This document shows positions 14,695-62,534 of a DNA stretch of 64,000 nt, piece after piece. A program made the position numbers and the translations under genes. The notes beneath the pieces were generated by a model. It saw only the letters and a program-made list of their open reading frames with translations, was not told where the DNA came from and ran no database searches. How positions within the stretch are numbered: the stretch's first letter is position 1; each line of letters starts with the position of its first letter. This DNA comes from Thermoanaerobaculia bacterium (lineage in GTDB: Bacteria > Acidobacteriota > Thermoanaerobaculia > Multivoradales > UBA5704), in the NCBI GenBank assembly GCA_035556715.1, contig DATMER010000063.1, positions 4,270 to 68,269 on the forward strand. Reading direction: 5' to 3'.

Positions 14695-15683
14695 GGACAC
14701 CCCGCCCCATCGTCATCGCCCATCGCGGCGCCAGCGGGTACCGGCCGGAGCACACGCTCGCAGCCTATGAGCTGGCCATCGAGATGGGCGCGGACTTCAT
14801 CGAGCCGGACCTCGTCATCACCGGCAACGAGGTCCTCATCGCGCGCCATGAGAACGACATCTCAGGGACCACGGACGTCATCGACCATCCCGAGCTCCGG
14901 AACCGGCGCAGGACGAAGTGGATCGACGGACGGGAGGTCACGGGCTGGTTCAGCGAGGACTTCACCCTCGCCGAGATCAAGACCCTCCGCGCTCGCGAAC
15001 GCCTCGAATTCCGCGACCGCAGCTTCAACGGCAGGTTCGAGGTCCCGACTTTCCAGGAGATCCTCGACCTCGCCCGGCGGAAGAGCGCGGAGACCGGTAG
15101 GACGATCGGCGTCTATCCCGAGACCAAGCTCCCGTCCTACTTCCGGGGGCTCGGTCTTCCTTTGGAAGAGCCCATGGTCGAGGCGCTCCACGCCGCGGGC
15201 TACCGGGGCCGGGATGCTGCCGTCTTCCTCCAGTCCTTCGAGACGGGCAACCTCAGACTCCTGAAGACGATGACCGACCTCCCCCTCGTCCAGCTCCTGA
15301 ACGATGGGGGGCAGCCCTGGGACCTGCGCGCAGCCGGCGATCACCGCACGTATCTCAATCTGGCCACCCCGGATGGCCTCGCGGAGATCGCGACCTATGC
15401 CGACGGCATCGGACCCAACAAGCGGCTGATCGTCCCCGCCGATCCGGACGGACGCCTGCGTCCTCCCACATCCCTGGTGGACGACGCCCACCGCGCTAGG
15501 CTGCTGGTCCACCCCTGGACCTTCCGCAGCGACCCGGCCTTCCTCTCTCCCGACTATGAGGGCGACGCGGTCCGGGAGTATGAACAGTTCCTGGAGCTCG
15601 GCGTGGATGGGCTGTTCAGCGACTTCCCGGACCTGGCGCGAGAGAAGGTGGAAGCAAGACAACTCGTGAGGAGATCCCTATGA
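14691..15683 (+). CDS. Glycerophosphodiester phosphodiesterase (GDPD/GlpQ-UgpQ family)
   Basis: GDPD signature PIVIAHRGASGYRPEHTLAAYELAIEMGADFIEPDLVITGNEVLIARHEND. A GTG start at 14691 overlaps the upstream stop. The longer track ORF 14145..15683 overlaps the previous gene and is rejected. Confidence 0.8.
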   Translation: MRTPRPIVIAHRGASGYRPEHTLAAYELAIEMGADFIEPDLVITGNEVLIARHENDISGTTDVIDHPELRNRRRTKWIDGREVTGWFSEDFTLAEIKTLRARERLEFRDRSFNGRFEVPTFQEILDLARRKSAETGRTIGVYPETKLPSYFRGLGLPLEEPMVEALHAAGYRGRDAAVFLQSFETGNLRLLKTMTDLPLVQLLNDGGQPWDLRAAGDHRTYLNLATPDGLAEIATYADGIGPNKRLIVPADPDGRLRPPTSLVDDAHRARLLVHPWTFRSDPAFLSPDYEGDAVREYEQFLELGVDGLFSDFPDLAREKVEARQLVRRSL

Positions 15684-15767
15684 ATGTCATCAATCCTTCC
15701 AGTATCTCCGCCAAGCCGGCCGACTGGCTCGAGACGGTTTCGGACGAGCAGTACCGGGGACGGTAGG

Positions 15768-16120
15768 CGGGAAAGCTTCTTTCCCGATGTCCGAGACGAT
15801 CTCCGAGCTCGGGAAAGCTCCTTTCCCGACACCCGAAACGATCCCCGGCGGCGGGAAAGCTCCTTCCCCGCGTCTGAAACGATTCCCGGCCTCGGGAAAG
15901 CCTCTTTCCCGGCGCCTGAAATGATTCGGAAGCGTTCAGAATGATTCGCGGCCTCGGGAAAATCATTTTCCCGACCGGGAAAGTCGCTTTCCCGACAACG
16001 GGAATGATCTGCGAGGGCGGGAAAGTCGCTTTCCCGACGGCCGGAACGATTCACGAGGGAGGGAAAGTCATTTTCCCGGCCCTTGGAATGATTTCCGGAG
16101 GCGGGAAAGCCTCTTTCCCA
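15768..16120. repeat. Intergenic tandem array of about nine ~42-bp units, each with a perfect 8-bp inverted repeat (CGGGAAAG-N3-CTTTCCCG) and a conserved GAAACGATYC-like spacer
   Basis: Read directly: cgggaaagcttctttcccg…cgggaaagctcctttcccg…cgggaaagcctctttcccg…cgggaaagtcgctttcccg (×2)…gggaaagtcattttcccg…gggaaagcctctttccca. Spacers are similar to each other (gaaacgatcc / gaaatgattc / ggaatgatct / gaacgattca). It sits between the GDPD gene and hldA. Confidence 0.85.
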
Positions 16121-16125
16121 CCTCG

Positions 16126-17202
16126 GTGGACGGGATAGACTCCCCCGCGATGACCTCTCCTCCGTCCCCGACGACCGGGCGCCTGACCGGATTGATCGAG
16201 GCCATGGCCGGACAGCCGATCGTGATGCTCGTCGACCTCGTGGCCGACCTCTTCATCACCGGGACCCCGAAGCGGATCAGCCGGGAGGCCCCCGTGCTCA
16301 TCCTGTCCTACCAGGGGGAGAGGCTGATCCCGGGCGGCGGGGCCAATGCCGTGGCCAACGTGGCCGCGCTCGGGGGACGGCCGATTCCCCTCGGGATCGT
16401 GGGGGACGACGCCAGCGGCCGCGGCCTCCTCGATGCCTTCCGCGAGCGCGGGATCTCCACCCAGGGAGTCCTGGTCCGGCCCGGATACCGCACGCCCACC
16501 AAGGTGCGCATCCTGGGCGGCGGCAAGCACTCGATCAAGCAGCAGATCGTCCGCTACGACATCGAGGAGACCCTGGAGCTGACGGCGGAGGAGCGCGACC
16601 GCTTCTCCGAAGCCTTGCGGGAGAGGGAGGCGCGGGTGGCGATCCTCTCCGACTACGGATACGGCACGGTCGAGCCGGGGCTGCTCTCGCGGATGCGCGA
16701 GGCCCTCGGTCCCGAGGCGACCCTGGTGTGCGACAGCCGCTTCCGCCTGGGCGACTTCCGCGGGCTGGACGGGGCGACCCCGAACGAGGAGGAGGCCGAG
16801 GCGCTCCTCGGCGCCACGATCGACGACGACCCGGCCAGGTTGGAAGAGGGGGGCAGGACCCTGCTGGAGCGCCTCGGGGCGCGCTTCCTCCTTGTCACCC
16901 GGGGGAGCCGCGGGATGAGCCTGTTCGAGACCGATGTCGATCAGATACGGGCGGCGCACCTGCCCGTCCACGGCACCGACCAGGTGGCGGACGTGACCGG
17001 GGCGGGGGACACGGTCATCGGCACCTTCGCCCTGGCTCTCGCGGCCGGGGCCAAGCCGATCGAAGCCGCCCTGCTCGCCAACTACGCCGGCGGGGTCGTG
17101 GTCATGAAGATGGGGACGGCCACGCTCACCCGCGAGGAGCTACGGCACGCGGTGGAGAGCGACCGGCATCCCCTGGAGGAGCTGCGGTGGGCGAGGTCCT
17201 GA
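16126..17202 (+). CDS. hldA: D-glycero-beta-D-manno-heptose-7-phosphate kinase (RfaE/HldE domain I, PfkB family)
   Basis: PfkB-family carbohydrate kinase sequence (…VANVAALGG…GIVGDDASG…TDQVADVTGAGDTVIGTFALALAAG…). It is followed by a separate adenylyltransferase gene, so hldE is split. Confidence 0.7.
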   Translation: MDGIDSPAMTSPPSPTTGRLTGLIEAMAGQPIVMLVDLVADLFITGTPKRISREAPVLILSYQGERLIPGGGANAVANVAALGGRPIPLGIVGDDASGRGLLDAFRERGISTQGVLVRPGYRTPTKVRILGGGKHSIKQQIVRYDIEETLELTAEERDRFSEALREREARVAILSDYGYGTVEPGLLSRMREALGPEATLVCDSRFRLGDFRGLDGATPNEEEAEALLGATIDDDPARLEEGGRTLLERLGARFLLVTRGSRGMSLFETDVDQIRAAHLPVHGTDQVADVTGAGDTVIGTFALALAAGAKPIEAALLANYAGGVVVMKMGTATLTREELRHAVESDRHPLEELRWARS

Positions 17203-18732: not shown

Positions 18733-20538
18733 ATGGCTGGACTCCGCCTGAGGGCGGGGCGAGCAGGAGATTTCATGGCACCACCACCGGAAGCAGCAGC
18801 CCGCAGACCGGCTGCCAGCAACGCCCCCGACAAACTCGGAGAGCTCCTGATCCGGACCAACCGGATCAACCAGGCGCAGCTTCAGGAGGCCCTGGCCCTG
18901 CAGAAAGACCAGGGCGGCCGGCTTGGCACCAACCTGATCAAGCTGGGGCATCTGACCGAGCGGCAGCTCGTCGATGCGCTGTCCGAGCAGTTCAAGGTCC
19001 CCTCCGTCGACCTGCACAACATGGACATCGACGACGGGGTGATCAAGATCATCCCGGCGGACATCGCGCGCAAGTACACGATCTTCCCGGTCACCAAGGC
19101 GGGCGCCACGGTCACCGTGGCCATGATCGATCCGACGAACGTGTTCGCGATGGACGACGTGAAGTTCATGACCGGCTACCGGGTGGAGCCGGTGGTGGCG
19201 TCCGAGACCGCGATCCGCGCGGCGATCGACAAGTATTACGGCTCGACGCACGCCATCGAGCTGAAGAAGGTCATGGAGGACCTCTCGGAGGAGTCGGGCA
19301 GCGACCTCGAGGTCCTGGATGAGGAGGAGGACCTCGACCTCGCCACGCTAGAGGAGGAGTCCGAGCAGGCGCCGGTGGTCAAGCTGGTGAACCTGATCCT
19401 CACCGACGCCATCAAGCGCGGCGCGTCGGACATCCACATCGAGCCGTACGAGAAGGACTACCGGGTCCGCTACCGCATCGACGGCATCCTCTACGAGATG
19501 ATGCGGCCGCCGCTCAAGCTCAAGGAGGCGATCACCAGCCGCTGCAAGATCATGGCGAAGCTGGACATCGCGGAGAAGCGGCTGCCCCAGGACGGCCGCA
19601 TCAAGATCAAGACGAAGATCTCCGGCAAGACCAAGGACCTCGACTACCGCGTCTCGGTGCTGCCCACGCTGTTCGGCGAGAAGATCGTCATGCGCTTGCT
19701 CGACAAGGACAAGCTCATGCTCGACATGACCAAGCTGGGCTTCGAGGTGGAATCGCTGCGCAAGTTCGAGAGTGCCATCCTGCGGCCGTACGGCATGGTG
19801 CTGGTCACCGGCCCCACCGGCTCGGGCAAGACGAACTCGCTCTACTCGGCGCTGCAGCGCATCAACACCCCGGAGGTCAACATCATGACCGCCGAGGACC
19901 CGGTGGAGTTCAACCTGTCCGGGATCAACCAGGTGCAGATGCGCGAGAACATCGGCCTCAACTTCGCGGCCTCGCTGCGCTCGTTCCTGCGCCAGGACCC
20001 CAACATCATCCTGGTGGGCGAGATCCGCGACTTCGAGACCGCCGAGGTGGCGATCAAGGCCGCCATGACCGGCCACCTCGTGCTCTCCACGCTGCACACG
20101 AACGACGCGCCGTCCACGATCAACCGCATGATGAACATGGGCATCGAGCCCTTCCTGGTGGCCACCTCGGTGCACCTGATCGTGGCGCAGCGGCTGGTCC
20201 GCCGCATCTGCACGTTCTGCAAGGAACCGTTGGAAGTGCCCCCCGCGGCCCTGATCAGCGCCGGCTTCTCGGAGCACGAGTCGCGCACCCTGAAGCTCTT
20301 CAAGGGGCGCGGCTGCGACCGCTGCAGCAACACCGGCTACAAGGGGCGCGTCGGCCTCTACGAGGTGCTGGAGGTCGAGGACGAGATGCGGGAGATGATC
20401 CTCTCCGGAGCCAGCTCCTTCGAGCTGCGCCAGAAGGCAGTCCAGAACGGCATGATGACCCTGCGCATGAGCGGGCTGCAGAAGATCCGCGACGGCGTCA
20501 CGACCCTCGAAGAGGTCGTGCGCGAAACCGTTCTCTGA
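18733..20538 (+). CDS. pilB: Type IV pilus assembly / type II secretion ATPase (PilB/GspE family)
   Basis: GspE N-domain, Walker A (VLVTGPTGSGKTNSLYS), Asp box, Walker B (…PNIILVGEIRDFETAE…), His box, and a tetracysteine motif (CTFC…CDRCSNTGYKGR). An alternative ATG at 18775 is possible. Confidence 0.85.
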   Translation: MAGLRLRAGRAGDFMAPPPEAAARRPAASNAPDKLGELLIRTNRINQAQLQEALALQKDQGGRLGTNLIKLGHLTERQLVDALSEQFKVPSVDLHNMDIDDGVIKIIPADIARKYTIFPVTKAGATVTVAMIDPTNVFAMDDVKFMTGYRVEPVVASETAIRAAIDKYYGSTHAIELKKVMEDLSEESGSDLEVLDEEEDLDLATLEEESEQAPVVKLVNLILTDAIKRGASDIHIEPYEKDYRVRYRIDGILYEMMRPPLKLKEAITSRCKIMAKLDIAEKRLPQDGRIKIKTKISGKTKDLDYRVSVLPTLFGEKIVMRLLDKDKLMLDMTKLGFEVESLRKFESAILRPYGMVLVTGPTGSGKTNSLYSALQRINTPEVNIMTAEDPVEFNLSGINQVQMRENIGLNFAASLRSFLRQDPNIILVGEIRDFETAEVAIKAAMTGHLVLSTLHTNDAPSTINRMMNMGIEPFLVATSVHLIVAQRLVRRICTFCKEPLEVPPAALISAGFSEHESRTLKLFKGRGCDRCSNTGYKGRVGLYEVLEVEDEMREMILSGASSFELRQKAVQNGMMTLRMSGLQKIRDGVTTLEEVVRETVL

Positions 20539-20544
20539 GCTGAT

Positions 20545-20600
20545 TCGTGGAAGGTCCGAAGGCCGCCGGCGGTCCCGCCGGTGGTCTCTCTTGGTCTGAA
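20545..20600. terminator. Possible bidirectional intrinsic terminator in the convergent gap between pilB and the small membrane-protein gene
   Basis: GC-rich imperfect hairpin ggccgccggcgg-tc-ccgccggtggtc followed by a T-rich run tctctcttggtct. No folding was computed. Confidence 0.3.
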
Positions 20601-20605
20601 GTCCT

Positions 20606-20815
20606 TTATCTGAGGTTGGACGGCGGGATGTTCGTACCGCCGGGCGGCCGGGGTGCCTGGGTCCTCTTGACCGCGCTCAGGATGCCGATGCCGATCAGAC
20701 AGATGACTCCCACCGCGATCCACATGGGATCTGCGCCAAGCAGATGAGCCCCGATGGCCAGCCCGATGATCAGGATGATGAAGCCGGCCAGGTACATTCC
20801 GAATGAAGATGACAT
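20606..20815 (-). CDS. Small hydrophobic membrane protein (about 69 aa; DUF1328/UPF0391-like)
   Basis: Two predicted TM helices (MYLAGFIILIIGLAIGAHLLG / MWIAVGVICLIGIGILSAV). No other motif. Confidence 0.4.
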   Translation of the reverse strand: MSSSFGMYLAGFIILIIGLAIGAHLLGADPMWIAVGVICLIGIGILSAVKRTQAPRPPGGTNIPPSNLR

Positions 20816-20881
20816 GGTCCTATCCTCCGTGCTGCCCGCTTCGGGCGGGCATGCCCTGGAGGATTCAAAAGCCGGGCCAAC

Positions 20882-22399
20882 TCACCAGTCGAGCCCGGCG
20901 AACAGCGCGGCGAAGACCTCGATTCCGTCCCACAGGTTCTGCAGCCGCAGGTTCTCGTGCGCGGCGTGCTGGTTGTTGTCGTGATTGACGATGGGCATGG
21001 TGATGACCGGCACGTTCAAGGTGTCGACGAACATGGAGATGGGCACGCTGCCGCCGAGCATGGGCACGCGGAGGGCCGGCTCGCCCAGCATGCCGTCGAT
21101 CGCCCGCACCACGGCCCGCGAGACCGGCAGGTCCATGGAGGTGCGGGCCGCGGCGTAGCCGTCCTCCCACTGGAGGCGCACGACCCTGGGGTGCTTGCGC
21201 CGGGTCTCCGCGTCCGGCACGTCGTGGACCACGTGGAAGCCGAGGCTCCGGATGTGGGTCTCGGTGCGCTCGCGCACCTTGGCGGGCGTCTGGTCCGGGA
21301 CCAGGCGGAAGTCGATCGAGGCCGTGGCCTCGGTGGGGATCGCGTTCCGCGCTCCGGCCCCTACCTGGGCTGACTGGAGCCCGCGCACGTTGAGGGCGGG
21401 GCGCATCACGCTGTCCAGGAGGCGCTCTCCCCCCTCGGTCCAGGCCAGGGCGAGCTCGTTCCTGAGCTCCTCCTCCACGGGAGGCATGGCCGCGGTGGCC
21501 GCCTTCTCGCTCTCGGTGAGGGGCCGCACTTCGTCCCCGAAGCCGGCGATCCGGATCTCGCCGTCCGGTCCCCGCAGACCGGCGAGCAGCTCGACCAGCA
21601 GCGCAGCGGGGTTGGGCGCCCAGTTGCCGTAGTGACCGCTGTGCAGGGCCCGCGCCGGGCCGTAGGTGGTCAGCTCCAGCCCCATCACGCCGCGAGCGCC
21701 AAAGACGACCTGCAGCTTGCGGGTCTGGTGGACCGGACCGTCGGCGAGGATCCAGGCGTCGGCGGCCAGGAGGTCGCGGTGCTCCCGGACGATGCTCGTC
21801 AGGTGCGTGGAGCCGGCCTCCTCCTCCCCCTCCAGGAACATCTTGATGTTCACGGAGGGCTTCACCCCGGCGGCGCGCAGGGCGTCCAGGGCGGCGAGCA
21901 TGGCCACGATCGGACCCTTGTCGTCGCTGGCCGAGCGGGCGTAGAGGCGCGCTTCCGGATCGAGAGGAGAAGAGCCGAGAGGGATCTCCCCGGAGTCCGG
22001 CCCGCCGGCCCGCAGCACCGGCTTCCAGGGGTCGGCCCCTCCCCAGTCGGCGGGGTCGGCGGGCTGGCCGTCGTAGTGGGCGTAGAAGACCACGGTGTGC
22101 TTCGCCCCCGGCGAGGGGAGCTCGCCGTAGACGGCCGGAGGGGAGTCCCCGGCAGTGAGCAGCCGGGCCTGGAAGCCGCGCTTGCGCAGCAGGCCGAGCA
22201 GGTGGTCGGCGTTGCGCTGGATGTCGGCGCGGTCGGAGGCGACGTTGCGCAGGGCGAGCAGGCCCGCCAGCTCGCCGACGACCTCCTTTTCGTGCGCCGT
22301 CCTCCAGGCGCGCACCTGCTGTTTCAGCTCGGCCGGCGCCTGGGCTTCGGCAGCAGTCCCCAACGTCAACAGCAACGCGATCGCGATCGTTCTGGTCAT
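20882..22399 (-). CDS. Secreted M20-family metallopeptidase (dipeptidase / carboxypeptidase-like)
   Basis: 505 aa. Signal peptide MTRTIAIALLLTLGTAAEA. M20 sequence (…HTVVFYAHYDGQP…SASDDKGPIVAML…FLEGEEEAGS…). It lies 17 bp downstream of the cytochrome gene on the same strand. Confidence 0.7.
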   Translation of the reverse strand: MTRTIAIALLLTLGTAAEAQAPAELKQQVRAWRTAHEKEVVGELAGLLALRNVASDRADIQRNADHLLGLLRKRGFQARLLTAGDSPPAVYGELPSPGAKHTVVFYAHYDGQPADPADWGGADPWKPVLRAGGPDSGEIPLGSSPLDPEARLYARSASDDKGPIVAMLAALDALRAAGVKPSVNIKMFLEGEEEAGSTHLTSIVREHRDLLAADAWILADGPVHQTRKLQVVFGARGVMGLELTTYGPARALHSGHYGNWAPNPAALLVELLAGLRGPDGEIRIAGFGDEVRPLTESEKAATAAMPPVEEELRNELALAWTEGGERLLDSVMRPALNVRGLQSAQVGAGARNAIPTEATASIDFRLVPDQTPAKVRERTETHIRSLGFHVVHDVPDAETRRKHPRVVRLQWEDGYAAARTSMDLPVSRAVVRAIDGMLGEPALRVPMLGGSVPISMFVDTLNVPVITMPIVNHDNNQHAAHENLRLQNLWDGIEVFAALFAGLDW

Positions 22400-22416
22400 C
22401 GTCGCATCTTATCGCT

Positions 22417-24414
22417 CTACTCGATGATCAGCTCGGCACGGGCTTGCGCCTTGAGCGTCATCGCCTTGCTGAGCAGGCCGTCGCGCAGGGAGGCGTTGTT
22501 GGTGACCGACGCGGCCAGCTCCGCCGCGTAGGCTGCCTTCAGCTTGGCGACCGCCGGGAGATGGAGGAACCTCTGCTCCAGCACCTCCCAGCCGTCCTGG
22601 GTGTCGAACGAGGCGAGGCGCGCCAGCTCCTTGGCGGTGGCGGCGTTGTTCTCGTCGATGGCGGCCTGGTCGAGCAGCAGCGAGGCGCGGATGTTCTCCA
22701 ACGTGTTCATGACGCGCAGGAAGGCCGCGATGTTCTCGACCTCGGTGGTCTCCATGGCGAGCGTGGGCAGGTTCCCGCCCGACTGGGACCTCTTGAAGGC
22801 CTGGGCGTTGTAGTAGCCGACCGCCTCCTCGATGGTGAAGACGGCGTTGTTGTGGAAGAAGGGCGGGGTGTCGACGGCCTCGATAGCAGGCTGGGTGTTG
22901 AACCGGACGTCGTTGTTGAGGTTGCCGTAGCCGCGGAACTCATTGGTAACCGGATCGAAGGACGCGGCGGTGCCGAATCCGCCGTCGGGCGGGAGGTTGC
23001 CCGGGAGGATCACGTTGGCCGGGTGATTGGGCAGCCGGCCGATGCCGATGTCGAAGCTCCGGTTGGTGGGAGCGGCCGCGGGCGAGTTGGCGCCGCCGTT
23101 GACGTGGCAGACGAAGCAGCGGGAGCTCAGGCCGTTGTGCTGCACGCGGCCGAGGTCGGCCATCTTGTTCCTGAGCCGGATGGTTGTGATGTTCGGGTTG
23201 TCCTGCCGGCCGAGGGCGAGCTGGAAGGCCTCCAGCGCGTCGAGCTCGGCGTCGGTCGGGAGACGGAAGTCGGTGCCCGCCACCCGGTTCAGCCTCTTCG
23301 TGAGGTGCTGGATCACGGCGCCGGTCGCGAAGTCGCGGAGGGAGCCGCTGCCCGGCGCGCCGTCGCCGCCCCAGCCCATGCGCTGGTTCGGCGGCACGGT
23401 CCCGCCGTCGTCGCCCGGCAACAGATAGCGGGAGAGTCCCAGCAGATGGGGGACGCCGCGCATCACGAACTTGTTATTGAGGTCGTCGAAACCATCGGCG
23501 TTTTCGAGCACCAGGCCAAGCTCGCGCATCAGCGCGGGCTTCTCGAAATTGTTCTTCAGCGCGGAGTTGGTCTCGGCCACGAACAGGGGATCGTTGGGCG
23601 GCAGGGTGGCGATGAACTTGGGATCGATGGTGAAGTTGTTCTCCGCCGGATGGCACGTGGCGCAGGTGCGGCCGTTGCCGCCGAACTTCTCGTTGAAGAA
23701 CAGGTCCGCCCCCCTGGCGATCAGCGGGTCCATGCTGTTGAAGGGGGAGTCCGCGAAGGCGACCCGGGGTCCGAAGAGGGAGGCGATGCGCGCCGCGGGG
23801 CGGGGCTGCGCCTGCTCGTGGCTGGCCCGGGTATAGAGGCGCTGGAACAGGATCGGAGAGCCGTTCAGGACCATGCCCTCGTCGGGCCGGATGCCCTTGC
23901 GGGTCACGGCCACCACGTCCACGTCGAAGGCGGCGAACAGGTTGCCGTCGAAGCGGGCTTCGAGCACGGCCCGGGAGCCGTCCCTGGAGAGCCGTCCCAG
24001 CCTGTGCATGAGGTCGCCGGGCTCGGGCAGGGTGCTGCGCTCCGGTCCCTCCTGGTTGTCGACCAGCCAGACTTCCCAGTCGTCGGAGGCTTCCACGTTG
24101 TCGATCTCGACGCGGGCGGTGCCGCCGACCATGTCGATGCGGGCAAGGCCGCTGGCGTAGGTGTGCTCGGTGGAGATGCCCCGGGACCAGCCGAGCGCGA
24201 TCAGGTAGTTGCGGTTGCCGCCGCCGCGCTCGTAGCCTGCCTTCCAGGTCTGGTAGAGGGATTCGAGCTTGCCGTTCTCGGCCATTCGGACCTCGGCCGG
24301 CACCTTGGTAGCCACCTGGCCTGCATAGGGGGATGGAAACATCACGAACGACGGGATCCCCAGGGCGAGCGCCGCCACCAGCAGACCCGCGAAGAGCTTG
24401 GCTCGGCTTCTCAT
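22417..24414 (-). CDS. Secreted di-haem c-type cytochrome (cytochrome c peroxidase/MauG-like)
   Basis: 665 aa. Signal peptide MRSRAKLFAGLLVAALALG. Two CxxCH haem-binding motifs (…RTCATCHPAENNF… and …SSRCFVCHVNGG…). It starts 19 bp after the NRPS-PKS TE stop on the same strand. Confidence 0.65.
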   Translation of the reverse strand: MRSRAKLFAGLLVAALALGIPSFVMFPSPYAGQVATKVPAEVRMAENGKLESLYQTWKAGYERGGGNRNYLIALGWSRGISTEHTYASGLARIDMVGGTARVEIDNVEASDDWEVWLVDNQEGPERSTLPEPGDLMHRLGRLSRDGSRAVLEARFDGNLFAAFDVDVVAVTRKGIRPDEGMVLNGSPILFQRLYTRASHEQAQPRPAARIASLFGPRVAFADSPFNSMDPLIARGADLFFNEKFGGNGRTCATCHPAENNFTIDPKFIATLPPNDPLFVAETNSALKNNFEKPALMRELGLVLENADGFDDLNNKFVMRGVPHLLGLSRYLLPGDDGGTVPPNQRMGWGGDGAPGSGSLRDFATGAVIQHLTKRLNRVAGTDFRLPTDAELDALEAFQLALGRQDNPNITTIRLRNKMADLGRVQHNGLSSRCFVCHVNGGANSPAAAPTNRSFDIGIGRLPNHPANVILPGNLPPDGGFGTAASFDPVTNEFRGYGNLNNDVRFNTQPAIEAVDTPPFFHNNAVFTIEEAVGYYNAQAFKRSQSGGNLPTLAMETTEVENIAAFLRVMNTLENIRASLLLDQAAIDENNAATAKELARLASFDTQDGWEVLEQRFLHLPAVAKLKAAYAAELAASVTNNASLRDGLLSKAMTLKAQARAELIIE

Positions 24415-24433
24415 GGTTGGACTCCTTTTGCGT

Positions 24434-48294
<23,861 letters not shown>

Positions 48295-48298
<4 letters not shown>

Positions 48299-51200
48299 GA
48301 GCCTTCCTTCCGCCCGATCGCGGAGCGCGACCGGAGGCTGGACGCGGAGCGGGAGAGCGAGGCGATCCGGGGCACGGCCGGCGGCTGCACGGCGGTCCGC
48401 GCCTCGCGCACCGCGTCGAGGAGGCGAGCCACCGTGGGCGACTGGAACAGGGCGCGCAGCGGCAGCTGGACCTCGAAGTCCCGCCGCACGCGCGCCACGA
48501 TCCGCGTAGCCAGCAGCGAGTGCCCGCCCAGCCGGAAGAAGTCGTCGTGGAGCCCCACCCGCCCCTCCCGCGGCACTCCGAGCACCTCGGCCCAGATCGC
48601 GGCCATCCGGCGCTCATCCTCGGTCCCGGGCTCGACGAAGCCTTCGCGATCTCCCCCATCTGGAAGAGTGCGTCCGGAGAGCGCTTTACGATCCACCTTG
48701 CCGTTCGGGAGCCGCGGCAGGGCGTCCACGAAGCCGATGGAGGAGGGGACCATGTGGATGGGGAGGCGGGCGGCGAGCACGGCCCGCAGCTCACCCTTCT
48801 CCTCTCCCGCCACCCATGCCACCAGGCGGCGATCTCCTCCTTCACCCACGGCCACGACGGCGGCCTCGGTCACTCCAGGACAAGCCAGCAGGGCCGCCTC
48901 AACCTCGCCCAGCTCGATACGGAAGCCGCGCACCTTGACCTGGTGATCGATCCGCCCCAGGAACTCCAGGCGGCCGTCGGCGCGGAAGCGGGCGAGGTCG
49001 CCGGTGCGATAGAGGCGTCCCCCTTCTCCCTGGAAGGGATCCGGGACGAAGCGCTCGGCGGTGAGGTCCGGCCGGTGGAGGTAGCCGCGGGCCAGGCCGG
49101 CGCCGCCGAGCCAGACCTCGCCGGGCGCTCCGATGGGCGCGGGGCGCTGCCAGCGGTCGAGCACGTAGGCGCGGCCGTTCGCCAGGGGCCGGCCGATCGT
49201 GGCCGGCTCGTCCCCGCGGCGGCGGGTGAACGTGGAGTAGGTCGTGTCCTCGGACGGGCCGTAGAGGTCGAAGACCTGGGCTCCGGACCGGCTCTCGATC
49301 TCCGCGACGAGGGCCTGCGTGAGCGGCTCGCCGGCCAGGGTCACGGTGCGCACCGAGGGCGGCAGGGCGTCCAGCCGGAGCAGCTCCGCCATGGCGGACG
49401 GCACCGTGTTGACCAGCGTCACCTTCCCGGTCTCGGGCAGCCCGGCCAGGGCCGGGGCCAAGGCCAGGGCATTATCCGCGAGGATCACCGTGCCCCCCAG
49501 CGACAGCGACACGAACAGCTCGAAGACCGAGAGGTCGAAGTTGATCGAGGTCGAGGCCAGGACGCCCGCCAGATCCTCCGGGGAAAAGACCTCCGCGGCC
49601 CACCGGACCAACGCCACGGCATTGCGGTGCTCGATCGCCACGCCCTTGGGGCGGCCGGTCGATCCCGACGTGTAGATCAGGTAGACCAGGTGCTCCGGCA
49701 GCACGCCTGCCTCGGGATCAGCCTCGCTCGCGGCCGGGAGGGTATCCAGGCAGACGGCGCGGGGCTGTCCCGGAAGCCGGGCCAGGAGCGGCTCCCGGGT
49801 GACGACGAGGTCGCAGTCCTCCAGGAGAAGGGCCAGGCGCTCGGCCGGGTACGTGGGATCGATCGGCAGGTAGACGCCACCCGCCTGCAGGATGCCCAGG
49901 AGCGCGGCCACGAGGTCAGGCGTTCGCTCCAGGCAGACTCCCACCGGCCTCTCGTTTGCGACCCCCAGCGTCCGGAGGTGGTTGGCCAGCCGGCGGGACC
50001 TCCGCAGCAGCTCGCCATAGGTGACCCGCTCGCCCTGGCAGGCGACGGCCACGGCATCCGGCGTGCGCCCGGCCTGGGCGGCGAACAGGTCGTGCAGGCA
50101 GCCCGTGGAGTGGTCCATCCCGGTGTCGTTCCACTCGACCAGGGCCTGATGCTGCTCGGCCGTGGAGAGGAGCGGGAGTTCCGAGAGCCGCCGTCCAGGC
50201 TCGGCCGCCGCGGCTTCGAGCAACCCGGTCAGCGAGCCGAGCAGTCGGGCGATGGTGGCGCGGTCGAAGAGGTCGCGGCTGTATTCGGCCTGGAAGAGCC
50301 GCTGGCCGCCGGGGCGGTCCACCATGGCCAGGGTGAGGTCGAACTTGGCCGTGCCGGTCTCCACCGGGAGCGGCTCCAGCTCGAGCCCCGCGGCGGCAGG
50401 AGGCGCGAGCGGCGCGTTCTGCACGATGAGCAGGACCTGGAACACCGGCGAGTGGCTCAGGTCGCGCTCCGGCCGCAGCTCCTCCACCAGCTTCTCGAAG
50501 GGAAGGTCCTGGTGCGCGTAGGCGTCCAGGGTAACGTCCCGCACGCGGGCTAGGAGGTCCGCGAAGGAGGGATCGCCCGAGAGATCGGCCGGCAGCGCCA
50601 GGGTGTTCACGAACAGGCCGATGAGCCCCTCGGTCTCGGCGCGCTGCCGGTTGGCGATCGGGGTGCCCACCGGCGGGTCCTCGCGGCCGGTGAGGCGGCC
50701 GAGCAGGGCCTGGAATCCGGCGAGGAGGACCATGAACGGGGTGGCTCCCCGGGTGTATCCCAGCCCGGAGGCGAGCAAGAGGTCCTCCCGGCCGCCGCGG
50801 GTGCCCTGGACCGGGGGACGGGGCCGGTCGGCCGGCAGTTCCAGGAGAGGCGGCAGTCCCGCGAGGCGCTCCCGCCACCAGCCGAGCTGCCTCTCCAGCG
50901 TCTCGCCCTGGAGCCATCCGCGCTGCCAGGCCGCGAAGTCCGCGTACTGGACCGGCAGCGGCGGCAGGGCCGCGCCCTCGTAGAGCCGCATCAGCTCGCG
51001 CAGGAGCACGCCCATGGACCAGCCGTCCGAGACGATGTGGTGCATCAGGAGGAGGAGCTGGTGATCCTCTTCTCCAGTCCGGAAAAGGACACCCCGCACC
51101 AGCGGTCCGAGAGCCAGATCGAACGGCCGCGCCGCCTCCGCCTCCGCCACACGCCGAACCTCCGCCTCGGAGAGCTCGATTACCGGCAAAGACAGGCGCA

Positions 51201-54200
51201 GCTCCGGAGCGACGATCTGGACCACCCGCGACTCGTCGACGAGAGAGAACGTAGTCCGCAGGGCCTCGTGGCGGCGGACGACCTCGTTCAAGGCATCGGC
51301 CAGCCGCGGGACCGACAGGGGTCCGCGCAGCCGCAGAATGGCCGGAATGTTGTAGGCCGCCCCGCCTTCGCCGAGCTGGTCGAGGAACCAGAGCCGCTCC
51401 TGGCCGAAGGACGCGGGCAGCTCGCCGGTCCTGGGGACCGGGACGATCGGCGGCGCCAACATCTCCCCACCCCGCCGCGTCGCCTCGACCCGCTCGGCCA
51501 GTCCGGCAATGGTCGGAGCCTCGAACAGCGCCCGCAGCGGAATCTCGACGCCGAGGGTCTTGCGGACGCGGGAGACCACCTGCGTGGCGAGCAGCGAGTG
51601 TCCGCCCAGCTCGAAGAAGCCGTCGTGGATCCCGACCTGGGAGCGGCCCAGCACCTCGGACCAGACCGCGGCGAGCAGCTCCTCCGTTGGAGTGCGCGGA
51701 GCGGCGAAGCCCTGGCTTGCCGCCTCGTCCCAGTCGGGATCGGGAAGCGCCCGGAGGTCTACCTTGCCGTTCTGGGTCAGGGGCAGGGCGTCCAGGACCA
51801 CGAAGGCCGAAGGGATCATGGCGGGGGGGAGGCGGGCGGCGAGGTAGGAGCGGAAGGCCCCCTCCCCGACCACGTACGCCACCAGCACCCGCTCACCGCC
51901 CCGCTCCCGCACCGTCACCACCGCCTCGCGAACCTCCGGGTGCCCGGACAGGACGGCCTCGATCTCCCCCAGCTCGATGCGGACGCCACGGATCTTGACC
52001 TGGTGGTCGATGCGGCCCAGGAACTCGATCTCGCCGTCGCTCTGGTGCCGGGCCAGGTCGCCGGTCCGGTAGAGCCGGCCCCCCGTCGAGAACGGATCGG
52101 GCACGAAGCTATCGGCGGTCAGGTCCGGCCGGCCGAGATAGCCGCGCGCCAGACCCTCGCCGCCCAGGCAGAGCTCTCCGGCCACGCCGGCCGGCAGCGG
52201 ACGGCCGCCGCGGTCCAGGATGTAGACCAGAGTCCCGTCCATGGGCCAGCCGATGGGTGGCGCGCCCTCCCCCGGAGAGACATCTCCCCAGGTGGCAACG
52301 ACCGAGCTCTCGGTGGGGCCGTAGTGGTTCACCAGGCGGAAGCGGTGACGGGCATCGGGGCGGCGGCGCAGGCGGTCGCCCCCCGCGAGGAGCGCGCGCA
52401 GACGGTGCTCCGGCCAGGGCTCGTCCAGCACCAGCTCGGCCATGGGCGTGGGCAGGAAGGCGAGCGTGATCCCGGCCTCGGCCAGCCAGGGGACCAGGGC
52501 CGCGGGATTGGCCCGCACCCCCTCGGGCGGGAAGACCATCGCCGCGCCCGAGGCCAGGTAGGGCCACAGCTCCCAGACCGAGGCGTCGAACCCCTCCCCC
52601 GCCATCTGTGGCGCCCGGTCGTCCGGCTTCACTCCATACGCCCGGCGGTGCCAGCGCACCAGGCTGAGCAGCCCGCGGTGCGGCACCTCCACCCCCTTGG
52701 GGCGGCCCGTCGATCCCGACGTGTAGATGACATAGGCGAGCTGCTCGCCCTCCACCCGGATGCCTGGGCTCGTGGACGGCCCCGCGGCGGCCGAATCGGA
52801 GAGCACCACCGGGGCGCCGCAGTCCTCCAGGGCCAGGGCGAGGCGGGGGTCTCCCGGATCGAGCGAGACGTAGATGCCGCCGGCCTTGAGCACCGCGAGC
52901 AGCGCCACCACCCGCTCCGGCGAATGGCGCATCACCACCGCCACCCGGGTTTCGGGCTTCACCCCCCGGGCGATGAGATCGTGCGCCAGCCGGTTGGCCC
53001 GGGCGTCCAGCTCCGAGTAGGAGACCGTCCCCTCTCCGGAGATCAGCGCCGGAGCGTCCGGCGTCCTCTCGGCCCACGCCTCGAACCATTCATGGACCGC
53101 ATCCGGTCCCCCAGGCTCCATGGACGTGGCGTTCCAATCCACGACCACCTGGCGGCGGGCTGCCTCGGTCAGCACAGGCAGCTCGCCGAGGGGGAGATCG
53201 GGATGAGCCGCCGCGCCCTCGATCAGCACCGCGAAGCACTCCAGCAGCCGGCCGGCCGCCGCGGCATCGAAGAGATCGGCGTCGTAGTCGATCCGCGCTC
53301 CCCGGCCGCGCTCGACCGACACGGCCAGATCGAGCTTCACTTGGCCGTGGTGGACCTCCAGCGGCTCCGTCTCCACACCCGCCAGCCGCAGCCCGCCCAG
53401 GCCATCCTGGAGGCCGAAGACGACCTGCACGACCGGATCGTGATCGAGGTTGCGGTCCGGCCGCAGGTCCTCGACGAGGCGCTCGAAGGGGAGGTCCTGG
53501 TGCGCGTAGGCCTCCAGGGCCACGGTCCGCACCCGGCCCAGCTGCTCGCGGAAGGACGGGTTTCCGGCCATGTCCGCGCGCAGCGCCAGGGTATTCACGA
53601 ACAGGCCGATCAGCCCCTCGGTCTCCTCGCCGGAGCGGTTGTCGATGGGCGTGCCCACGACCACGTCCGTCCGCCCCGAGAACGGGGTCAGGCGGAAGAG
53701 CAGGGCCTGGAAGGCGGCCAGGAGCGCCACGAACGGCGTGGCTCCCTCGCGCCGGCCCACCTCTTCCAGGGCCGGAGCAGCGGGCAGCGGCAGCGTCTGC
53801 CAGGCGCCCCGGTGCCCGCGGGCCGCCTGTCTCTGTCCTGCCATGGGCAGCTCCTGGACCGGCGGCGCATCCGCGAGCCGCTCCCGCCACCAGGCGAGCT
53901 GTGCCTCCATCTCCCCGCCCGCCAACTGCTCCCGCTGCCAGACCGCGAAGTCCGCGTACTGGATCGGCAGGTCCGGCAGCGCGATGGCGGCGATACCGCC
54001 GTATAGACTCCCCAGCTCGCGGGCGAAGATCGCCAGGGAGCGGCCGTCCCACACAAGGTGGTGGACGTTGACGAAGAGGACATGGTCATCCGGCCCCAGG
54101 CGCAGCAGCAGGGCGCGGAAGAGCGGCCCGCGCTCCAGGTCGAACGGCCGGGCCGCTTCCGCCGCCAGCGTCCTCCGGACCTCGGCCTCAGGCAGGTCGG

Positions 54201-54488
54201 CTATGGGCAGTGACCGTGGCAGGTGAGGATGGACGACCTGGACGGGCTCGTCCGCCTCCACCTCGAAGGTGGTGCGCAGGACCTCGTGCCGGGCCACGAT
54301 GCCGTCGAGAGCGCTCGCCAGGGCCGCGGGATCGAGCGGGCCACGCAGGCGCCACGCCGCGGGCACATTGTAGAGCGGCGTTCCCGGCTCCATCCGGTCC
54401 ACGAACCAGAGCCGGCGCTGGGCATACGAGACGGGGAGGACATAGACCTCGTCCTCCGATCCGGCGCCCTGCTGGAGAGGCTCCGCGA

Positions 54489-54492
<4 letters not shown>
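48295..54492 (-). CDS. Non-ribosomal peptide synthetase, two modules (C-A-T-C-A-T), 2065 aa
   Basis: Two C domains (HHLVWDG / MHHIVSDGWS), two A domains and two T domains (serines near 51600 and 48525). Hand-derived codes: DAWFLGHVVK, 9/10 to the Leu code DAWFLGNVVK; and DLFNTALTYK, 9/10 to an Ala code. Its GTG start overlaps the upstream stop as GTGA (54489-54492); its TGA stop overlaps the next ORF's start as GTGA (48295-48298). Confidence 0.9.

Positions 54493-62534
<8,042 letters not shown>

Follow-up and report, generated by a model that had tools for sequence, protein, structure and literature searches.

Oxidation of non-ribosomal peptides is normally the work of cytoplasmic P450s or non-haem iron enzymes. 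A precedent for periplasmic oxidation or trimming after export is the non-ribosomal peptide pyoverdine, with the proteins PvdM, PvdN, PvdO, PvdP and PvdQ; of these, PvdP belongs to the tyrosinases, PvdQ to the Ntn acylases, and PvdM is M19-like. Di-haem enzymes of the MauG type, to our knowledge, are known only as modifiers of tryptophan in proteins (methylamine dehydrogenase and MbnP) or as orphans (BthA). Here we analyse a gene for a c-type di-haem protein that lies between the end of a non-ribosomal peptide synthetase–polyketide synthase (NRPS-PKS) gene and a gene for an M20 metallopeptidase, in a 64,000-nucleotide stretch of DNA (hereafter, the window; GC content ~65–74%) on contig DATMER010000063.1 of a metagenome-assembled genome of a soil Thermoanaerobaculia bacterium (Acidobacteriota). 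The original prediction, made from the sequence of the window, assigned both the di-haem protein and the peptidase to periplasmic maturation of an exported peptide. Our comparison of related loci separates the two: the di-haem protein represents a newly recognised family, distant from the known MauG and MbnH, whereas the M20 peptidase gene is an ordinary one.

MauG of Paracoccus denitrificans (PDB 3L4M) carries a tyrosine, Tyr294, as ligand of its six-coordinate haem, and mutation of this residue abolishes the bis-Fe(IV) signature (PMC6405878). MbnH is encoded in the methanobactin operon, where it oxidises a tryptophan of its partner protein MbnP to kynurenine (PMC11951088), and the Burkholderia di-haem peroxidase BthA (PDB 6NX0), a MauG-like orphan whose partner is a putative phosphatase, combines a His/Tyr haem with additional sequence (PMC6405878). 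The protein of the window resembles MauG as a c-type di-haem protein with a predicted periplasmic location, and both CxxCH regions of MauG and its ...TGP-x-x-HN...FYN stretch align with the profile of the new family. It differs in being 665 rather than 373 aa long, with an extra N-terminal beta-sandwich and an extra C-terminal helical bundle, and in its neighbours, which are an NRPS-PKS, the M20 peptidase and a type II/IV secretion ATPase (T2SSE) instead of a mau operon with methylamine dehydrogenase. MbnH (6E1C), the best solved relative (E 1.4e-6), is likewise MauG-like, periplasmic and encoded in a peptide natural-product operon; that operon, however, makes a ribosomally synthesised and post-translationally modified peptide for copper uptake, whereas our gene stands beside an NRPS-PKS, and neither the window nor the loci of its relatives contain an MbnP gene. 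BthA matches the family profile only marginally (E 0.46), and the partner in our case is an NRPS. The parallel with pyoverdine is one of concept, as the Pfam and NCBIfam searches detected no homology between the Pvd enzyme families and either the di-haem or the M20 protein.

The di-haem gene occupies 22417..24414 on the minus strand, and its product is predicted to be exported: like that of the M20 protein, its N-terminus has a basic and then a hydrophobic stretch resembling a Sec signal, as judged by eye, and covalent haem attachment itself needs export. The two haem motifs are CATCH (C251, C254 and H255; aa 251–255; 23650..23664, minus strand), which aligns with C31/C34/H35 of MauG, and CFVCH (C433, C436 and H437; aa 433–437; 23104..23118, minus strand), which aligns with the CRLCH of MauG. 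They are not chance occurrences, because both are invariant in 85 of 85 family members and contain the only four cysteines of the protein. Also invariant in this comparison are H370, H521 and Trp348 (23371..23373, minus strand), the last within a GWGGDG motif and a candidate inter-haem tryptophan. It may be the counterpart of the inter-haem Trp93 of MauG, but the region around it was not aligned to MauG by HMMER, so that the likeness is one of motif resemblance only. Tyr535 (22810..22812, minus strand), in an F/Y-Y-N motif, is the candidate axial ligand of the six-coordinate haem and is a tyrosine in 80 of the 85 members. Its stretch in our protein, DTPPFFHNN...YYN, aligns with VTGPYMHNG...FYN of MauG, placing Tyr535 on Tyr294 of 3rn0_A (LFYNKY), and the second haem is probably His/Tyr-ligated.

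Recognition of the family required a profile. As a single sequence, the protein found nothing better than E >= 0.05 among PDB sequences; it scored 16.0 bits with the Pfam family CCP_MauG (PF03150; cut-off 25.6), in a match limited to aa 235–263, and 13.4 bits with the NCBIfam MbnH model TIGR04039 (cut-off 362.85), and no NCBIfam model matched above its cut-off. A profile built from 40 family sequences and searched against PDB sequences matched MbnH 6E1C and MauG (E 2.5e-6) over aa 228–261 and 418–535, stretches that take in both haem regions. We thus assign the protein, by its motifs and profile homology, to a distant, architecturally expanded and unannotated branch of the cytochrome c peroxidase (CCP)/MauG superfamily, of the MauG/MbnH (Tyr) type; curated thresholds and a fold search give this placement no support. 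The two CxxCH motifs and the exported MauG-like enzyme proposed in the original prediction are upheld by translation, by the profile matches and by the alignment of Tyr535, as are the gene order, the shared strand and the 19-bp and 17-bp spacers, which are exact according to the open reading frame (ORF) coordinates, and the terminal thioesterase (TE) of the NRPS-PKS. The classification of both proteins by family models that it proposed as a check had a mixed outcome: the peptidase exceeded the Pfam cut-offs for M20 and M20_dimer, whereas neither a curated di-haem family nor an M20 equivalog was reached.

The predicted layout consists of a signal peptide (aa 1–~32), a beta-sandwich N-domain (~40–200), the di-haem core (~230–550) and a four-helix bundle (556–662). 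An AlphaFold model (predicted local distance difference test score, pLDDT, 67.5; predicted template modelling score, pTM, 0.72) is confident in the four-helix bundle and scores 70–90 in the N-domain, and models the haem core poorly. Full-length homologues of ~660 aa are numerous, most of them without a precomputed Pfam domain; when 1.84 billion representatives were searched with a profile, 817 clusters at 50% identity were returned (E<=1e-30), and among one-per-species genomes the family occurs in Acidobacteriota, Planctomycetota, Deltaproteobacteria, Nitrospirota, Methylomirabilota and a few Gammaproteobacteria. Literature on MauG and NRPS clusters, on DUF5916 and on Thermoanaerobaculia NRPS yielded no description of the family or of its association with NRPS genes. 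A RoxA-type rubber oxygenase, which we took as a candidate for its similar length and two haems, was rejected because the profile, searched against PDB sequences, matched no RoxA entry at E<=1. An MbnH/MbnP system was rejected on the score with TIGR04039 and the lack of an MbnP. Canonical CCPs have a methionine at the position of MauG Tyr294, and a canonical CCP with a His/Met haem was rejected on the alignment alone, in which the residue is a tyrosine.

We scored related loci (designated by L numbers) by tblastn with five proteins of the window: the di-haem protein, the M20 peptidase, a 69-aa ORF, the last 2000 aa of the NRPS-PKS and T2SSE. Di-haem homologues of at least 60% identity (clade A) were found in 11 loci (the window, L003, L006, L007, L008, L010–L013, L175 and L176), and in all 11 the gene lies downstream of an orthologous NRPS-PKS C-terminus (58–78% identity over ~2000 aa, partial at contig ends). 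It is co-directional with the NRPS in eight of them, at gaps of 19 to ~140 bp. What follows it is variable: the M20/T2SSE block, ThiG and unrelated genes (L007), neither M20 nor T2SSE (L011 and L012), or M20 and then beta-helix, Rce1 and SbcCD genes (L008). Among the sampled loci no clade-A member stood away from an NRPS, and no homologue of 56% identity or less stood beside the orthologous NRPS. Two further branches of the family adjoin non-orthologous NRPS genes independently. In clade B of the neighbour-joining tree (48–53% identity; L015, L019, L034 and L058) the di-haem gene is followed by a CBM9/DUF5916 gene and then by an NRPS starting with a fatty-acyl-AMP ligase (FAAL), and in L064 (42% identity) an NRPS ending in a TE is followed by the di-haem gene and then by a MacB permease gene. 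We read the clade-A di-haem gene as a usual but dispensable accessory gene of the NRPS-PKS cluster, and on balance we judge the link between the two to be functional. The tie proposed in the original prediction is thereby sustained, with L090 and L177 as orthologous NRPS loci that lack the gene.

Other branches of the family have neighbours of their own. In a large clade of 39–44% identity that lacks an NRPS neighbour, mostly from Blastocatellia and Pyrinomonadaceae, an ankyrin-repeat gene for ~300 aa adjoins the di-haem gene on the same strand in 20 loci (for example L050 8812-9687 and L035 8517-9476), an arrangement that suggests the ankyrin-repeat protein to be a partner of the enzyme there. 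The NRPS-free sister of clade B has a gene for a CarboxypepD_reg protein of ~1380 aa directly downstream of the di-haem gene (L016 11903-16054; also L018 and L020), with genes for an AI-2E transporter and a VirJ-like protein upstream. A search of the window for CBM9/DUF5916, ankyrin or MacB partners found none.

The peptidase, encoded at 20882..22399 on the minus strand, has a different pattern of occurrence. Its 505-aa product, also predicted to be exported, scores 78.3 bits with PF01546 (cut-off 24.6) and 50.3 bits with M20_dimer PF07687 (cut-off 21); all NCBIfam equivalogs stay below their cut-offs (the best, PRK08201, at 251.7 bits against 441, with DapE and ArgE far below). Its sequence shows HYD, SDDKG and EGEEE as metal and base motifs, and the nearest solved relatives, matched over the full length with E values of 6.5e-42 to 1.8e-32, are the Sso-CP2 carboxypeptidase (4MMO), carnosinase CN1 (3DLJ), DUG1 (4G1P) and CNDP2 (2ZOF), exopeptidases of the M20A/M20F type that share the catalytic and dimerisation domains. 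Most of these relatives are cytosolic, whereas our protein has a predicted signal peptide. By these matches we classify it as an M20 exopeptidase of the carboxypeptidase/dipeptidase type. Close homologues are abundant, the best 120 all being at least 63% identical.

The M20 gene is the first gene of a flanking core block and is not specific to the cluster, because the 69-aa ORF and T2SSE accompany M20, not the NRPS, and M20 keeps its position where no NRPS is present. The orthologues compared across contexts are 73–85% identical. In L092 (80% identity) the order is M10 peptidase, a 184-aa gene, M20, a 60-aa ORF, T2SSE, GT9, CTP-transferase and PfkB, with neither an NRPS nor a di-haem gene within 10 kb upstream of M20; in L094 (73% identity) the context is unrelated and includes no NRPS. 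Among 37 metagenome M20 loci (48–67% identity, at least 3 kb upstream) none had a di-haem gene, and four had only weak matches (23–30%) to parts of the NRPS query. Conversely, no M20 lies within ~10 kb in L007, L011 and L012, which do carry the NRPS and di-haem genes. The gene preceding M20 is the di-haem gene in the window, L175, L010, L008 and L013, PMT_2 in L006, L090 and L176, a divergent 184-aa gene in L003 and L092, and a divergent CBM9 gene in L177. Across relatives M20 begins 17 bp to ~8.5 kb after the di-haem stop, and in L003, L006 and L176 3 to 8.5 kb of unrelated genes separate the two, so the 17-bp junction of the window is a local result of a compact variable region. A dedicated prodrug-activating or resistance peptidase, as originally predicted, does not fit orthologues that occur without an NRPS in L092 and L094 and are missing from the NRPS/di-haem loci L007, L011 and L012; nor did we find support for the premise that M20 enzymes often activate NRPS prodrugs, the known prodrug peptidases being of the S12 ClbP type. 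With regard to adjacency of the two homologues in NRPS-free genomes, which the original prediction had named as telling against it, the outcome is divided: the di-haem and M20 genes were never found together without the NRPS, whereas M20 keeps its position without it.

Our preferred reading, which we hold with modest confidence, is that the di-haem enzyme is a periplasmic oxidase linked to the cluster and that M20 is a neighbouring core gene with no dedicated role. The 665-aa protein would be exported through Sec and would become a c-type di-haem oxidase or peroxidase in the periplasm, using H2O2 or O2 at a five-coordinate haem; the His/Tyr second haem would allow a high-valent state like that of MauG. 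Its substrate would be either the exported peptide-polyketide, as a tailoring step, or an envelope protein that handles the product. M20 would trim periplasmic peptides for general purposes, may be read through from the cluster, and would abut the di-haem gene here because the variable region seen in relatives (0 to 8.5 kb) is absent. The CBM9/DUF5916, MacB and CarboxypepD_reg neighbours that recur in other loci would fit a function located in the envelope. From sequence, a periplasmic oxidative role of the di-haem enzyme is plausible, and we infer that the product of the cluster may be matured in the periplasm.

Several observations weigh against this reading. Most members of the di-haem family, by tree and loci, are not near an NRPS. 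L090, whose NRPS is the closest found (80% identical), and L177 (58%) have the NRPS and M20 with no di-haem gene between them; they make up two of 13 orthologous NRPS loci, and the enzyme must therefore be dispensable or encoded elsewhere. The clade-A loci all come from one lineage, so shared ancestry inflates their count. In L003, L006 and L176 a CBM9/DUF5916 gene on the opposite strand lies between the NRPS and di-haem genes, and co-transcription of the two is therefore not conserved. Fold searches, made with a model that is poor in the haem core, gave no significant match to CCP/MauG structures. As for the peptidase, M20 is present in 10 of the 13 orthologous NRPS loci, and L008 and L013, which lack the T2SSE block, have it immediately after the di-haem gene, so that a secondary role in the cluster is possible.

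The first alternative is that neither gene is tied to the NRPS, both being passengers of a variable region whose adjacency reflects shared descent in one lineage. The region from the NRPS stop to the beginning of M20 is indeed a hot spot with differing cargo, and the di-haem-free L090 and L177 and the many family members without an NRPS neighbour are as this account would have it. However, the di-haem gene keeps its place immediately after the NRPS in loci that lack the M20/T2SSE block (L007, L011 and L012) and in loci with other flanks (L008 and L013), two other branches of the family have come to lie beside non-orthologous NRPS genes in other arrangements, and no clade-A member was found away from an NRPS. 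We consider this alternative unlikely.

A second alternative keeps the enzyme active and changes its target: in a supporting role like that of MbnH or CCP, it would modify a tryptophan, either in an envelope protein or in its own N-domain (which might, for instance, create a metal- or ligand-binding site for metallophore uptake), or would detoxify peroxide for a redox-active product. MbnH sets the example, since it sits in the methanobactin operon yet oxidises the protein MbnP and not the product (PMC11951088). Two invariant tryptophans of the N-domain, Trp57 and Trp116, would offer targets, and the neighbours in other clades, namely the CBM9/DUF5916 protein (...YAVLW), the CarboxypepD_reg protein and MacB, are envelope or outer-membrane-like. 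Against it, no MbnP-like gene or domain was detected and the protein scores 13 with TIGR04039, whose cut-off is 363; across the 85 members the N-domain has no invariant His, Met or Cys of the kind that would suggest a metal site, and nothing points to a metallophore product. We regard this second account as very unlikely. Least probable of all is that the di-haem protein and M20 are both dedicated periplasmic maturation enzymes, one for oxidative cross-linking or hydroxylation and the other for leader removal or self-resistance, for although the NRPS, di-haem and M20 genes are adjoining and co-directional in the window, L010, L175, L008 and L013 (the last two with a different downstream flank), M20 accompanies most orthologous NRPS and both N-termini resemble signal peptides, M20 stays in the small-ORF/T2SSE block without the NRPS (L092) and is NRPS-free also in L094 and the 37 metagenome loci, is missing from or distant in six clade-A loci (L007, L011 and L012; L003, L006 and L176) and is of the dipeptidase/carboxypeptidase type, not of a known prodrug-peptidase type.

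Beyond the preferred reading of a cluster-linked oxidase, a bolder proposal, which we put forward as doubtful, is that the ~660-aa family consists of MauG-like bis-Fe(IV) oxidases whose architecture makes them a new class, and whose NRPS-linked clades would cross-link or hydroxylate the exported peptide-polyketide in the periplasm. In a variant of this proposal the tryptophan-bearing N-domain would be an intramolecular, MbnP-like substrate, converted into a cofactor or a ligand-binding site for metabolite handling.

The arrangement of the genes in the window would fit a single transcript. Two NRPS/PKS genes on the minus strand (54489-62534, a 2681-aa ORF, and 48295-54492, a 2065-aa ORF) precede the last and largest NRPS-PKS gene (24434..48298, minus strand; 7954 aa). 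Between its stop and the di-haem start lie 19 bp (24415..24433), with an AAGGAG ribosome-binding site 7 nt upstream of the di-haem ATG; this spacer folds no better than shuffled sequence (z = +0.49) and contains no promoter-like or terminator-like site. The 17-bp spacer before M20 (22400..22416) has a hairpin that is not significant (z = -1.95). Read-through is likely because the three genes share a strand and the spacers are too short for a terminator. In contrast to these spacers, a GC-rich hairpin of 12 bp followed by UUUU encloses the M20 stop codon (20867..20899, minus strand); the 91-nt piece folds at -51.6 kcal/mol (z = -4.24, 0 of 200 shuffles as good) and is likely an intrinsic terminator that ends the unit. 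A consensus scan for sigma-70-like promoters found none in 20300-24900, although this consensus is uninformative for Acidobacteriota. One transcript that runs from the NRPS through the di-haem gene to M20 and ends after M20 is thus likely.

Downstream of M20, the 69-aa hydrophobic ORF (20606..20815, minus strand) matches no Pfam family and has copies of 77–84% identity directly after M20 in L003, L006, L010, L090, L092, L095, L175 and L177; a second hairpin just upstream of it overlaps its ribosome-binding site. The convergent T2SSE gene (18733..20538, plus strand; Pfam T2SSE and MshEN), 91–96% identical in relatives with and without the NRPS, is the first gene of a conserved housekeeping block, which includes heptose genes and marks the cluster boundary. 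Below ~20.5 kb the window holds housekeeping genes (T2SSE, GT9, PfkB, GDPD, a methyltransferase, CHAT/TPR, S8 and an NADH dehydrogenase subunit). A gene of the Trp_halogenase family (~540 aa) adjoins PfkB in L003, L006, L090 and L092, lying between PfkB and GDPD in L090; it is missing in the window, as only ~440 bp (15683-16126) separate these two genes there.

The variable region from the end of the NRPS gene to the beginning of M20 (22400-24433 in the window; also L003, L006, L090, L176 and L177) ranges from 2 kb, with the di-haem gene as its sole content, to ~13 kb. Its cargo across close relatives includes CBM9/DUF5916 and di-haem genes, genes for PIN toxins, for a sigma factor and for an M10 peptidase, an additional T-C-A-T NRPS and a trio of MT, GT2 and PMT_2. 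The CBM9_1 and DUF5916 protein (~750–780 aa) recurs beside NRPS genes, where the di-haem gene accompanies it in two clades but not in L177 (L003 7378-9642, L006 7545-9782, L176 7519-9777, L177 7573-9879 and L015 12878-15208, with equivalents in L019, L034 and L058). It has a signal peptide and a C-terminus, ...GYAVLW, like that of an outer-membrane beta-barrel; searches found no solved relative and no description of it in the literature.

Pfam searches of the last 2999 aa of the megasynthase matched the families Condensation, AMP-binding, PP-binding, Sulfotransfer_3, ketoacyl-synt, Acyl_transf_1 and Thioesterase, which together with a motif map give the C-terminal order ...A-T-sulfotransferase-C-A-T-KS-AT-ACP-TE, the terminal TE lying at ~24461-25183 (minus strand). 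The sulfotransferase domain (PF13469, E 6e-30; ~31583-32230, minus strand) follows a T domain and precedes the next C domain. This internal position, as opposed to the ACP-ST-TE end position of the CurM type, suggests on-line sulfation of the growing peptide as a possible step. The final module (~24461-28156, minus strand) is KS-AT-ACP-TE without KR, DH or ER domains, and the product would therefore be released as a beta-keto acyl compound, or after cyclisation or decarboxylation.

A core peptidase came to resemble a tailoring enzyme through its close spacing and common strand, an impression that comparative synteny corrects. For the di-haem protein the same comparison leads elsewhere. If it does oxidise the NRPS product, it would be the first enzyme of the MauG type to act on a small-molecule natural product. 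A family of ~800 clusters that Pfam and NCBIfam miss, and that recurs beside large NRPS genes in uncultured Acidobacteriota, would serve cluster-mining tools as a new marker gene and would point to a periplasmic oxidative step in the maturation or handling of their metabolites.

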